Assembly (NCBI GenBank): GCA_964016885.1 | Contig: OZ024740.1 | Location: 194,556,001 to 194,620,000, forward strand | Reading direction: 5' to 3' | Source of the DNA: Eledone cirrhosa | Taxonomy: Eukaryota | Length of the DNA stretch: 64,000 bases | Shown: positions 5,926 through 37,979 of the stretch, piece by piece | Layout: every line of letters starts with the position of its first letter | Numbering within the stretch: position 1 is the stretch's first letter | Translations under genes and position numbers: made by a program | The notes under the pieces: model-generated | What the model was told of the DNA's origin: nothing | Databases searched by the model: none | The model's input: only the letters and a program-made list of their open reading frames with translations

Positions 5926-6353
5926 TAATATAAGATCAAAAGATGGTTAAAGGAGTTCAATATATTTTATTATGCGCATTTCAAAAACAAACATCATCAA
6001 ACAATAATATTTGTGTTTTCATCAGATAAAACAGGAGAACATGATATGAAGGCTAAAAAAACACTTGTTGATAGTGCAGTTTTAAATCAACATATGATAT
6101 GTTGATTTAAAACTGCACTATCAACAAGTGTTTTTTTAGCCTTCATATCATGTTCTCCTGTTTTATCTGATGAAAACACAAATATTATTGTTTGATGATG
6201 TTTGTTTTTGAAATGCGCATAATAAAATATATTGAACTCCTTTAACCATCTTTTGATCTTATATTATGCATACTCCAGTCCCACAAACTGTAGAGTGCTT
6301 CTTATCCGATATCTGCATTGCTTTATTGTACTACAATAAAACTCACCTCCTAC
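5926..6353. mobile_element. Fold-back non-coding insert with a hammerhead in each arm (family also at 37642-37979)
   Basis: About 165-bp inverted arms centred near 6095; right arm has an extra tail of about 87 nt; (TA)n on both sides. Confidence 0.85.
6161..6227 (+). ncRNA. Type I hammerhead ribozyme
   Basis: ttttat-CTGATGA-stem II-GAAA TGCGCA TA-ataaaa; mirror copy on the minus strand near 5964-6030. Confidence 0.85.
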
Positions 6354-6465
6354 ATATATATATATATATATATATATATATATATATATATATATATATA
6401 TATATATATATATATATATATATATATATATGTAGAAGTTGTTACACAACAGTTAGTTCACCATA

Positions 6466-6505
6466 CCGAGAACAATTGTTTCACCTTAGTGGATCCTCAG
6501 CTCGG
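6466..6505 (-). ncRNA. Minimal type I hammerhead in PLE 3' end
   Basis: Minus strand ccgag-CTGAGGA-tcc actaa ggt-GAAAC AATT GTT-ctcgg. Confidence 0.85.
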
Positions 6506-7958
6506 AATGGGCATGGTTATAGGAACAGGAAGGACAACCGTACGAACGCGCATGCGCAGAAACCCGGTCACTTCACACAGGCAATACTAGACTGCGTGCG
6601 TGAGGTGTAAGGGAGTTAACTGCGAAAGTCCGAAAAGTTTTTAGGTTGAAAATAAAATTACAAAGAATCAGTCCGGAACCTTGTAGTTATGCAATAGGTG
6701 TTTGGCGCCGTGTGGACAACTTGTGAAAAATTCACTTCTCGTGTTTAGGCAATGACTATTGCGTAATCTCTTTAGAATAGTTATTCGTTCGTCAATACAT
6801 AAGCCACACGTCGGATTTTCCCTTGCGTATGGCTTGGACTTAGTGATGGCTTTCCATTGAATGGCGTAGTCTTTACTTGAGTCCTTGAGGGACCATACGT
6901 AGCTCGCGAGTTTCGTGGATGAACGTCTGTCCGGGTACCTGAAGGTCAACTGGTGGTTCAGGAAACGTTCCTTAAATCGGCCCTCCGCCATGCCCACATA
7001 GGATTTGACCTCCTGTGGTTCGTTTGGTCGGTTGGAAGTGACCACAGCTTCATAAATTACAGCTGGTGTGTTTCATTGGTGTTGAAGGGGGCAAGCTTCA
7101 GGCTTACGGCAAGAGCACCCAGGTGGGGTGTGGCTCCTAGGGCTGTTTGTGATGTGGGCCATCATGTTCTTAGCGCAGGAGTATCCTAGTTTAACTTTGT
7201 GTCTGTTAAAGATGGAGCGGTATTTATGACCTATGGGAAAGTGTCTATCTAAGATGGCTAGAAATGTTTTTCTTACATTGGTTTTAACGTTTAGTGAGAA
7301 TGGAGGAGAGAACCAGATAGTTTGTCTATTGTTGTGCTTACTTTTCTTAACGGTGATGTTACTAGTGGGAGATTAAGTGATAGGTTGTAAGAAGCCGCTG
7401 TTAGCCAACGCCGTGTTATAGTAGGGTGCCGCCCTGTCGAAGGTAGCCTTATTAGAGGAAAGGTTTGAAATTCTAGTACTGATATTCTTAACGAAGTTTC
7501 TAAAAACAGTGGGAGGGTGGCATGTGTCCTTGTGAATGTAATTGAGTTTCACGTTTAGCTTTTGGAATGGTCTGTGGGTGTGTGTGCAAAGGTCTAAATT
7601 AATGTCTAAGAAATCTATGCAAGAGAGGTTGGTGGCTACTGTTATCTCATTGAAGGTAGAAGCTAAGTCTTTTTTAAACCGGTCGAGGTTGTGACCACTT
7701 TTATGGCTCGATAAAGTCAGTCCAACGTCGCGGTATATTCCCGTGTGGAAGTCCGGGAATCAAACACGTAATATGTCTAAGATAAATAGGCCAACCAAGT
7801 CACATACATCAGCACTGTCAAACGAGCCCATGGAGACGTCGAATACGTCTGAAGTTGTAGACTTCTTTGCCCAGGCTATATTGCCTGTGTGAAGTGACTG
7901 GTTTCTGCGCATGCGCGTTCGTACGGTTGTCCTTCCTGTTCCTATAACCAGGCCCATT

Positions 7959-7998
7959 CCGAGCTGAGGAACCGCTAAGGTGAAACAATTGTTCTCGG
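7959..7998 (+). ncRNA. Minimal type I hammerhead in inverted pLTR
   Basis: ccgag-CTGAGGA-acc gctaa ggt-GAAAC AATT GTT-ctcgg. Confidence 0.9.
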
Positions 7999-35238: not shown

Positions 35239-35269
35239 TTATATATATATATTATATATATATATTATA

Positions 35270-35496
35270 TAGTGGTAGAACACTGGAAGGTAATATCCGT
35301 AGTGGGAGAGCACTCAGTCCATGGGACGAGTTAGGTAGATGTGGTTACACAACAGTTAGTTCACCATACCGAAAAGAATTGTTTCACCTTAGCGGATAAG
35401 ATCCGAGAACAATTGTTTCACCTTAGCGGATCTTATCCGCTAAGGTGAAACAATTGTTCTCGGTATGGTGAACTAACAGTTGTGTAACCACTTCTA
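35270..35496. mobile_element. Mini fold-back of the same pLTR as the 6430-8096 PLE
   Basis: Long arm on the left and short arm on the right, with a duplicated and inverted centre at 35393-35440 that breaks inside hammerhead stem II. Confidence 0.85.
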
Positions 35497-37641
35497 TATA
35501 TTATATATAATATTTATTGTATATATATATGTATATTATATATATATATATATTATATATATATACATAAAATGTATGGTATATATATATATATATATAT
35601 ATATATATATATATATTATATATATATATAATATTTATTGTATATTTATATATTATATATATATATAATATTTATTGTATATATATAATATATATATATA
35701 TATAATATTTATTGTATATATATATATATATATATAATATTTATTGTATATATATTTATATATTATATACATATATATATATATATTATATATATATAAT
35801 ATTTATTGTATATATATATATTATATGTATATTTATATATATATATATATAAAAAATATATATATAACATTTATTGTATATATATATATTATATATATAT
35901 ATATAATATTTATTGTATATAATATATATATATATATATATATATATATTATATATATATATATATATATAATATTTATTGTATATATATATATATATAT
36001 TATATACATATATATATATATATATATATATTATATATATATAGTATTTATTGTATATATATATATATATATTATATATATAATATTTATTGTATATATA
36101 TATATTATATATATATTTATATATATATATATATAAAAAATATATTTATAACATTTATTGTATATTATATATATATATATATATAATATTTATTGTATAT
36201 AATATATATATATATATATTATATATATATATATATATATAATATTTATTGTATATATATATTATATATATATATATAATATTTGTTGTATATATATATA
36301 TATTATATATATATATTATATATATATATATATAATAATTTATTGTATATATATATATATATTGTATATAAATATATAATATTTATTGTATATATATATA
36401 TAGTATATATATATAATATTTATTTTATATATATATATATATTATTTATTGTTTATATATATATATATATATATTATATATATATTATATATATAATATT
36501 TATTGTATATATATATTATATATATATATAATACTTATTGTATATATATTATATATATATAATATTTATTGTATATATATATTATATATATTTTGTATAT
36601 ATATATGTAATATTTATTGTATATATATATATTATATATATATATAAATATTATATATATATAATGTTTATTGTATATATATATGTTATATATATATATA
36701 TATATATATATATATATATATATATATATATATATATATATATATATATATATATATATATATATATATATATATATATATATATATATATATATTATAT
36801 ATATATATATATATATATATATATATATATATATATATATACATATATATTATAATTATAATAAAATAACAGGAGGCTGGACTTGTGTAAATCCTTGAAA
36901 GGTTTATTATACTATGATCATTTCAATGACTGTATTCCGTATGAATCCTGTAATATCACCAGGTATTCGTAATAGAAGGTTCAGCACTGGATAGAGCCGG
37001 TCAATTCCGTAAGAAATTGACCGGTTCTATCCAGTGGTGAACCTTCAAATCTAAATATATATATATTATATATATATATATATTATATTTATTATATATA
37101 TATATTATATATATATATTATGTATATATATATATATATTATATATATATAATATTTATTGTATATATATATATATATATATATATATATATATATATAT
37201 ATATATATATATTATATAGATATATGTATATATATATATAATATATATTATATATATGATATATATTATATATGTATAATATATATTATATATGTATAAT
37301 ATATATTATATTTATATGTATTATATATATAATATATATTATATATATATATTATATATATTATATATGTATAATATATATTATATATGTATAATATAAA
37401 TTATATTTATATATCTTATATATATATAATATATATTGTATATATATATAATATATATACATACAATCAATATCATATATATATAATATATGTTACATAT
37501 AAATATAATATATATTATATATATATGCATATATATATATACATATATATATATATTATATATATATATATATATATATATATATATATATATATATATA
37601 TATATATATATATATATATATATATATATATATATATATAT
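35497..37641. repeat. Long compound (TA)n array containing a small fold-back at 36861-37055
   Basis: TA repeats with ATTTATTG interruptions; inverted arms at about 36975-37005 and 37015-37046. Confidence 0.85.
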
Positions 37642-37979
37642 AATATTAAATCAAAAGATGGTTAAAAGAGTTCCATGTATTTTATTATGCGCATTTCAAA
37701 AACAAATATCATCATGGGATGATATTTGCGTTCTCATCAGATAAAATAGGGAGACATGATATGAAGCTTAAAAAACATTTGCGAGCAGTGAAGTGTTAAA
37801 TCAACATATCATCCCATGTGGATATTTGTTTTTGAAATGCGCATAATAAAATACATGGAAATCTTTTAACCATCTTTTGATTTTATATTATTTATACTCC
37901 AGTCCTATAAATTGTTGAGTGCTACTCATCCGATATTTGCATTGCTTTATTGTGCTACAATAAAACTCACCTCCTACAT
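37642..37979. mobile_element. Fold-back insert with hammerhead (family of 5926-6353)
   Basis: Minus-strand hammerhead near 37680-37748; both outer ends fall at the same positions as in the 5926 copy. Confidence 0.85.

Follow-up and report, generated by a model that had tools for sequence, protein, structure and literature searches.

Between the 88 TA tracts of a 64,000-nt window of Eledone cirrhosa DNA (G000:C1:194556001-194620000, the whole stretch analysed here, GC 33.6%, within a 3.0-Gb assembly), the sequence is occupied by inverted-repeat (fold-back) insertions with one short and one tailed arm, which raises the question of what determines the position of the short end. These fold-backs are ordinary insertion units of Penelope-like elements (PLEs) in (TA)n, because they consist of an inverted truncated copy with a tail at one end and carry Hydra-type endonuclease (EN) ends and hammerhead cores. 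The original prediction was that a hairpin at the beginning of the tail, written ACTC..GAGT and shared by unrelated families, marks where the short arm ends. As judged from sequence comparison, this hairpin is probably the place where Hydra-clade PLEs anchor their reverse transcriptase (RT)-endonuclease on the RNA, so that it likely sets one internal priming site. It is apparently a clade-wide, undescribed cis element in a known kind of system; what is added here is the conserved hairpin, its fixed spacing and the arm-pairing rule, internal priming at two sites being already known in vitro from a lizard Poseidon PLE.

The sample, about 1.5 Mb of the genome, comprised 134 stretches of 10 kb, 10 of them adjoining the window, and an extra 30 loci selected via the EN of family c4. 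A fold-back was called with one arm at a TA tract, no long TA tract being allowed inside. An arm is termed "long" or "short" by its outer end alone; a short-ended arm may extend further inward. Local satellite-like arrays of inverted units (L095 and cluster 8, L140), copies of the window (L165, L195) and loci picked for one centre (L001-L030) were dropped from the counts, leaving 127 asymmetric fold-backs in 39 clusters. There were 19 motif families: 12 had strict matches, and in 7 the hairpin was placed manually on a relaxed form. The regex also matched at 61213 (+) and 20935 (-), outside called fold-backs, and these matches were left uncounted.

The tail motif is a two-helix bulged hairpin. 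Across clusters it consists of R-Y-T-C, an upper stem of free sequence (3-7 bp) with a loop of 3-65 nt and, on the 3' side, a bulge of T plus T, A or C (a single T in c4) followed by G-A-R-Y, mostly with RC after it. The ACTC..GAGT hairpin was upheld as conserved and covarying but belongs to this richer form, RYTC..bulge..GARY, which also takes in TCTC/GCTC..TT-GAGC at minus 38218-38181 and 10586-10545. Strict matches were situated 2-12 nt past the last base common to both arms in 51 of 54 cases (mode 4-5), a score for the 1.5 Mb that is not independent, since the descriptor was shaped on the same sample; measured from the first base of the TA tract, the position was 7-8 nt. A strict match at the junction was present in 12 of the 39 clusters, as compared with 0.045 clusters in dinucleotide shuffles (maximum 2 in 200) and 0/39 on the reverse strand. 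The evidence for the motif is its position: in 18 families the modal short end fell at -6 to -13 relative to the hairpin. The 12 nt upstream of the hairpin were T/A-rich in each of 21 families. The hammerhead GAAA box was found by eye 52-72 nt from the hairpin in 6 families, and the hammerhead is a worse ruler of the short end than the hairpin. Non-coding mini fold-backs retain the hairpin. In families c6 and c13 (e.g. L119:1711-1956 and L084:2279-2671) the tails begin with ACTC-GTGT-loop-ACAC-CTC at the usual distance and have no GAG box, the basal stem being lost and the upper stem retained.

When all arm ends, paired or solo, were mapped relative to the hairpin, two peaks per family were obtained. 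In the 19 motif families 125 ends were at -10..-3 and 101 at the tail end, with 8 at -2..+1, 7 within the tail, 6 further up and 77 without a clean TA tract. The -10..-3 interval held 125 of 147 non-tail ends versus 20.8 expected from even use of TA sites, a comparison that counts copies and not families (the per-family expectation is 2.2/12). In a further 29 loci of family D, 21 ends were at -8..-5, 19 at the tail end and one elsewhere, and 5 were unscored. An overlap of 1-7 nt between the short end and the TA tract was present at 94 of the 127 junctions, and in family c3 a TATAT site 10 nt further up is sometimes used as short end; TA microhomology is real but secondary, being part of the signal and not an alternative to it.

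For the covariation test, the 3' box was found by sequence only and the first upper-stem pairs were scored in 21 families or solo arms, including two long-loop families mis-anchored by the 3'-box rule. Pairing was observed in 55 of 63 cases and in 36.5 (sd 3.2, maximum 50 in 20,000) after 3'-strand swaps, a control that overstates independence because the families are related and whose result is not a probability. Pair 1 was A-T in 10 and G-C in 8 families, and one family had T-A at pair 2; pair 5 was T-A in 10 and C-G in 6, and pair 6 G-C in 11 and A-T in 5. Read on the sense strand, G-U pairs numbered 6 and A-C mismatches 2. The original prediction had named two outcomes that would speak against it, ends random with respect to the motif and ends fully explained by TA microhomology without covariation, and neither was found, because the ends are coupled to the hairpin beyond microhomology and the stems covary.

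The families that share the hairpin are diverged relatives, since their linked ENs are of Hydra type and the motif is present in published Hydra consensi. In PMC8557442, the Hydra clade is marked by a CxCX5C linker, no CCHH cysteines in GIY-YIG and CxxC/CxH around E and N. In the window, the open reading frame (ORF) end P0002 has C-N-C-x5-C, the Hydra linker, ahead of its GIY-YIG core; by eye, P0002 and P0003 have no CCHH cysteine pair inside GIY-YIG, and CxxC and CxH flank E and N. The window insertions, as those of the clade, have (TA)n targets. An EN could be linked to 8 of the 19 motif families, always of Hydra type and 29-100% identical to the window proteins (the other 11 have no linked ORF), and the motif-free family c2 links to a Neptune-type protein, so that a sharing of the hairpin by unrelated families is not supported. 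The N-terminal YSLKNIP stretch of L247 matches the way in which published Hydra ORFs begin. Of seven Hydra EN hits whose downstream sequence was inspected, L087 has a clear new hairpin, with an unsure linkage because the EN is 2.5 kb away; L077 terminates at the short site, L085 has the 5' half of a hairpin at the locus edge, and in L072, L080, L035 and L124 there was no hairpin before the first TA tract or the end of the locus. A metagenome scan with P0002 gave no relatives.

The consensi of other animals were read by eye in the supplement of PMC8557442 (File S7), and within that file the motif is clear in 3 of 6. The coral Hydra-2_Amil has an upper stem TACAC/GTGTA with a TT bulge and the sea cucumber Hydra-2_Ajap an upper stem TGCT/AGCA with a TA bulge. 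The Hydra-1_Ajap consensus starts 2 nt ahead of the hairpin and has a second copy, both upstream of an ATG near position 115. Variant or decayed forms are found in Hydra-1_Crog and Hydra-1_Amil, and no motif was seen by eye in the Hydra-1_Obim consensus of the same file. With the Hydra clade as described in the available parts of that paper, the insertions analysed here share the EN marks, (TA)n targets, a hammerhead in the pseudo-long terminal repeat (pLTR), the inverted truncated copy and the tail at one end; they differ in the tail hairpin, which those parts do not describe, and in tail length, 30-40 nt there and 46-160 nt here.

The way in which the two ends are combined bears on the same question. 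There were 87 arm pairs in the motif families, 56 with both ends classified, and 54 of these joined a short to a tailed end; one pair was short/short and one tailed/tailed. The proposal of one long and one short arm holds for the outer ends (54/56) but not inward, the fold-back at 6431-8095 having its ORF on the short-ended arm. Either arm can take either end, since the ORF-bearing arm of c4 had a short end at 14 and a tailed end at 13 of 30 loci. Both arms of an insertion are usually of one subfamily haplotype: in family D the arms showed 1.18 differences within and 4.2 between insertions (17 elements, with two outliers of 6 and 4), c1, c3 and c4 had the same trend, and no chimeric arms proving two RNA templates were found in the haplotype comparison. 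Target-site duplications were 13, 14 and 14 bp in the three of 29 D loci with informative TA variants. In the full tandem copy L247 (1 of 11 loci) the tail continues into the 5' untranslated region (UTR) and ORF, with TAT after the tail end too, so that the short and the tail ends are both internal to the tandem RNA.

With regard to the centres, 40 of 59 short/tailed elements had a spacer of <25 nt and 19 one of >=25 nt; among the latter, 8 spacers were part of the tailed arm, 5 of the short-ended arm and 2 of both, with 4 unassigned. Among 9 oriented Hydra cases there were 4 in which part of the short-ended arm had no counterpart in the tailed arm (spacers 169-1277 nt). The 29 fetched copies of the 190-bp D element were all identical and had one centre, and a shared-mismatch test of whole-unit re-transposition found perfect arms without mismatches in the 29 other copies; in one D subfamily three different centres occurred with the same ends. 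The single centre of the 190-bp copies could mean that hammerhead loop II is a hot spot for joining, or that a master copy moves whole. Centres in D, c3 and c5 gather at 55-75 nt from the short end; in D this is immediately upstream of the 3' strand of hammerhead stem II, and in c3 it coincides with stem I on its 5' strand. The clustering might be due to stalling of the RT on the ribozyme fold.

From these observations we infer a sequence of protein binding, priming and joining, which in its simplest form has a single RNA carrying two target-primed starts, one on each side of the bound hairpin. A tandem transcript would contain the hammerhead, followed by a short patch rich in UA, then the hairpin, which belongs to the 5' UTR of the following unit, and further sequence. 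The endonuclease would cut (TA)n with a stagger of about 13-14 bp. Of the 3' ends, one that ends in TA would then anneal through 1-5 nt to the UA patch immediately 5' of the bound hairpin and produce the short end, and the other would start 20-100 nt 3' of the hairpin, produce the tail end and copy through the hairpin. Both cDNAs, made from one RNA or from two RNAs of one source, would be joined head to head, which would leave one short and one tailed arm per insertion. That the hairpin fixes a priming site and that the short arm is made second, as the original prediction had it, is plausible by analogy with Poseidon in vitro initiation (PMC11167929). It is possible, at a more tentative level, that Hydra-clade PLEs of several animal phyla have in common an RNA anchor, conserved in sequence and structure, and that a dimeric RT, sister to telomerase, binds it and primes the same RNA on both sides with its two active sites, on one side at a short, telomerase-like alignment patch fixed 4-8 nt away. 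Were this the case, the tail and the inverted pLTR would be explained in one step, and a roughly 25-nt portable RNA-loading signal would be at hand.

The closest precedent is the purified anole Poseidon protein PAc, which cut and extended both target strands and began reverse transcription at two internal positions that delimit the tail, RNA 3' of them being required (Frangieh et al. 2024, PMC11167929); with this one in vitro result the idea of internal initiation is already published for another clade. PAc (Anolis carolinensis) has in common with the elements studied here an AT-rich target and a tail bounded by two start/end sites, and differs in being of the Poseidon clade and in starting inside an AC-rich stem-loop of the ORF, called non-homologous to the target; here the short start is T/A-rich single strand 5' of the hairpin, neither an AC-rich stem-loop nor devoid of target homology. 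Cross-family conservation and the one-short-one-long rule are not reported in the available parts of that paper. Non-LTR retrozymes (PMC7229834; bioRxiv 10.64898/2026.07.22.740005, both as far as available) are likewise short non-coding, hammerhead-bearing PLE derivatives in animals, but form direct tandem repeats with whole ribozymes, in contrast with the inverted pairs and often truncated ribozymes found here, and no such hairpin is named in those parts. A literature search, with most subscription journals outside its reach, found no description of the tail hairpin.

Other systems offer more distant parallels. In stringent LINEs and SINEs, for example eel UnaL2, the RT recognises a small 3' RNA stem-loop near the start of reverse transcription, and in L1 twin priming the second target end primes internally, giving rise to an inversion. 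The stem-loop of LINEs and SINEs sits 5' of the start and is itself copied, whereas the hairpin analysed here has one start on its 5' side and the other on its 3' side, and both arms have sequence in common. Telomerase, a sister RT clade, has RNA template-positioning elements and aligns a short primer at a fixed distance from a bound helix; repeat addition is absent here, and the likeness is one of analogy only, homology of polarity and structure not being claimed.

How PLEs choose their RNA, and why their insertions are inverted and one-tailed, have been open questions for two decades, and the one in vitro PLE system gave internal starts and no conserved signal. A small covarying hairpin at a set distance from one start, present in this genome, a coral and a sea cucumber, provides an exact element to mutate and to move, and the one-short-one-tailed rule, together with the shared haplotypes, constrains every model of the PLE cycle. 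Annotation profits as well, since the hairpin shows where the true boundary of a Hydra unit lies.

Several other explanations of the coupling deserve consideration. The hairpin might guide the EN, with both arms made tailed and one of them trimmed at a TA just 5' of the hairpin during resolution. Craig et al. attribute the tail to resolution by the EN (PMC8557442), recognition by the D. virilis EN needed the tail, as cited in PMC11167929, the short end is usually at TA, and trimming also predicts a single tail and a single haplotype per insertion; we nevertheless consider it rather unlikely, as the anole starts in vitro match both tail ends without any resolution step (PMC11167929) and the excess of G-U over A-C favours, weakly, a structure of the RNA sense. 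Alternatively, the hairpin could be a 5' UTR or promoter element, acting in translation, transcription start or RNA end formation and coupled to the short end by proximity, that end being set by something adjacent, for instance an RNA terminus or the UA patch. The presence of the hairpin within the following unit's 5' UTR in L247, the start of the Hydra-1_Ajap consensus 2 nt before it and its two copies upstream of the ATG (File S7 of PMC8557442), and the T/A-rich 12 nt in all 21 families would agree with such roles. Its retention by non-coding mini fold-backs and its spacing, constant to a few nt across families in which other spacings vary, argue against them, and independent RNA isoforms would be expected to yield short/short and long/long pairs, of which there were only 2 in 56; we hold this reading to be unlikely.

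A snap-back process, in which the tail-primed cDNA folds and copies itself until the hairpin stops it, would make the hairpin a stop and not a start signal. It accounts for one tail, one haplotype and near-perfect palindromic centres (the 40 of 59 short spacers), and self-priming has been proposed for PLEs (PMC3846280). It would need a later one-sided deletion in the 4 of 9 oriented Hydra cases with 169-1277 nt only on the short-ended arm, and its template would be antisense DNA, in which G-U pairs turn into A-C; we hold it to be quite unlikely. Finally, the ends could derive from TA microhomology or from a few master fold-backs re-transposing whole, with the hairpin incidental. In line with this are the microhomology at 94 of 127 junctions, the second TATAT site of c3 and the identical, single-centred D copies, but the 125 ends where 20.8 were expected, the three centres with the same ends in one D subfamily and the recurrence of the hairpin in at least 12 families and in other phyla speak against it. 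The junction and TA-site counts already largely refute this explanation, and we regard it as very improbable.

The reading of the hairpin as an anchor for internal priming also has to face a set of results that weigh against it, in addition to the dependence of the 1.5-Mb score and the limit of the swap control given above. No strict match was found near the junction in 27 of 39 clusters. A held-out 200 kb contained 19 asymmetric fold-backs with 6 strict matches, 4 of them at 5-7 nt (all family D), one at +42 and one at -42, and a further 4 decayed or partial hairpins near the junction were recognised by eye. The motif alone is loose (55 per 200 kb versus 34-41 in shuffled sequence), pairs 3 and 4 are invariant, partly due to motif anchoring, and the tail end, 21-97 nt beyond the hairpin, is not explained in position by it. 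Among 10 window copies (z -2.4 to -0.1) the minimum-energy fold included the basal stem in 5, and the pairing probability was <0.3 in several families; a weak fold in isolation fits a protein-stabilised element, or the absence of structure in some families. No RYTC/GARY bulged hairpin was seen by eye in the anole RNA of PMC11167929, as far as available. The ends of the Neptune-type c2 are equally fixed (17 at 0, 9 at +60) without a hairpin, and the window fold-backs at 41995-46471, 41025-41655, 23116-24196 and 36842-37066 have fixed-looking ends and no motif. In the fold-back at 10629-11667 the short arm stops 42 nt before the hairpin, an exception to the three other copies of its family, which end at -7, -7 and -6. 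The proposal that the hairpin marks the short end is thus borne out in the motif families and is not universal. As a separate observation, Neptune-type and other motif-free families (41995-46471; L107, L097, L228, L229, L033) have fixed ends and AC-rich tails of 36-60 nt, which recall the anole stem-loop and may carry their own signal.

In the window itself, all eight hairpins listed originally were found where they had been placed. For the six cases on the plus strand, the distance from the end of the short arm to the hairpin is 0-10 nt, in agreement with the proposed limit of about 10 nt. The end points 5928/37643 and 6431-8095/35271-35496 recur, and family D is present four times with constant short and long ends, also as proposed. 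The c9 fold-back at 5928-6354 (+) has its short arm on the left, its tailed arm on the right, a hammerhead core at 6167 and a bulged hairpin ACTC-CAGT/ACTG-TA-GAGT (6272-6296, +) 7 nt past the short end; a second c9 copy occupies 37643-37980 (+), with its hairpin at 37896-37920. Family c4 is represented at 6431-8095 (+), where the short-ended arm carries an ORF remnant, the C-terminal Hydra-type GIY-YIG EN piece P0003 (6668-7072, -), and the hairpin is ACTC-GTCC/GGAC-T-GAGT with a bulge of 1 nt (8036-8055, +), and at 35271-35496 (-), with a hairpin at 35331-35312. The family D elements are at 8246-8435 (+, 190 bp, at least 40 near-identical copies genome-wide at 99%; hairpin ACTC-TACT/AGTA-TT-GAGT at 8364-8387, +, 8 nt past the short end), 9021-10188 (+, longer and older, with a decayed hairpin near 10117-10140), 14649-14846 (+, hairpin 14775-14798) and 27250-27471 (-, hairpin 27321-27298). 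The c3 fold-back at 22113-22321 (+) contains a whole minimal hammerhead (core 22184) and a hairpin at 22250-22268, and the c10 fold-back at 27587-27897 (+) a hairpin with a weak upper stem at 27809-27834. The minus-strand hairpin GCTC-TGA/TCA-TT-GAGC at 10545-10586 belongs to the fold-back at 10629-11667 and has a second copy at 11220-11261. The c16 fold-back at 38111-40465 (-) holds the Hydra-type ORF end P0002 (38798-39925) and the TCTC..TT-GAGC variant at 38218-38181 (-), 9 nt past the short end, and the Neptune-type PLE fold-back at 41995-46471 (-), with the protein P0001, provides a contrast, with fixed ends and without the hairpin; read by eye, it has the CX2-5CxxC linker and the two cysteines inside GIY-YIG that define the Neptune clade.

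The hairpins at minus 8589-8611 and 24281-24302 were correctly located but do not serve as evidence on the short arm, as both are in solo arms without a called inverted partner; for the 8611 family, the position of the short arm can be read from further copies. The former, of family c1 (8592-8611, -), lies in a solo arm of about 8534-8827, and the latter, GCTC-TGTC/GACA-TT-GAGC (-), in an arm from 24217 to about 24400 with a hammerhead core at 24395. Pattern matching (CTGANGA..GAAA) placed hammerhead cores, predicted to be ribozymes, at 6167, 7964 and 22184 (+) and at 8717, 24395 and 37740 (-), and they precede the arm ends. Among the Rfam matches listed for the window, the hammerhead had a single sub-threshold match and the tail hairpin no named family; none of the best 150 of 357 matches reached the gathering score, those being miRNA-type fold-back matches. 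Pfam gave no PLE domain on the Hydra EN pieces and only RVT_1, in three ORFs; the RVT_1-bearing fragments at 30499-31743 (-) and 33373-34350 (+) are probably LINE remnants.

Other repeats share the window with these insertions. The elements at 23116-24196 and 27952-29025 are related and partially tandem, with a short end just past a CTGATGA box and GAAA before it, possibly a permuted hammerhead, and a tail with a different hairpin, ACATG/CATGT, followed by GC. An abundant family of nested tandem and inverted units with two alternative short ends is found at 29316-33059, 14077-14526 and 21526-21682. A frequent SINE-like repeat of about 170 bp is present at 392-567, 18767-19677, 46937-47428, 54403-55471 and 61677-61875, some copies standing head to head over TA tracts. 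At 27850-29021, a neighbouring element is capped by an inverted 30-bp piece of the c10 tail end, which suggests template switching or nested insertion.

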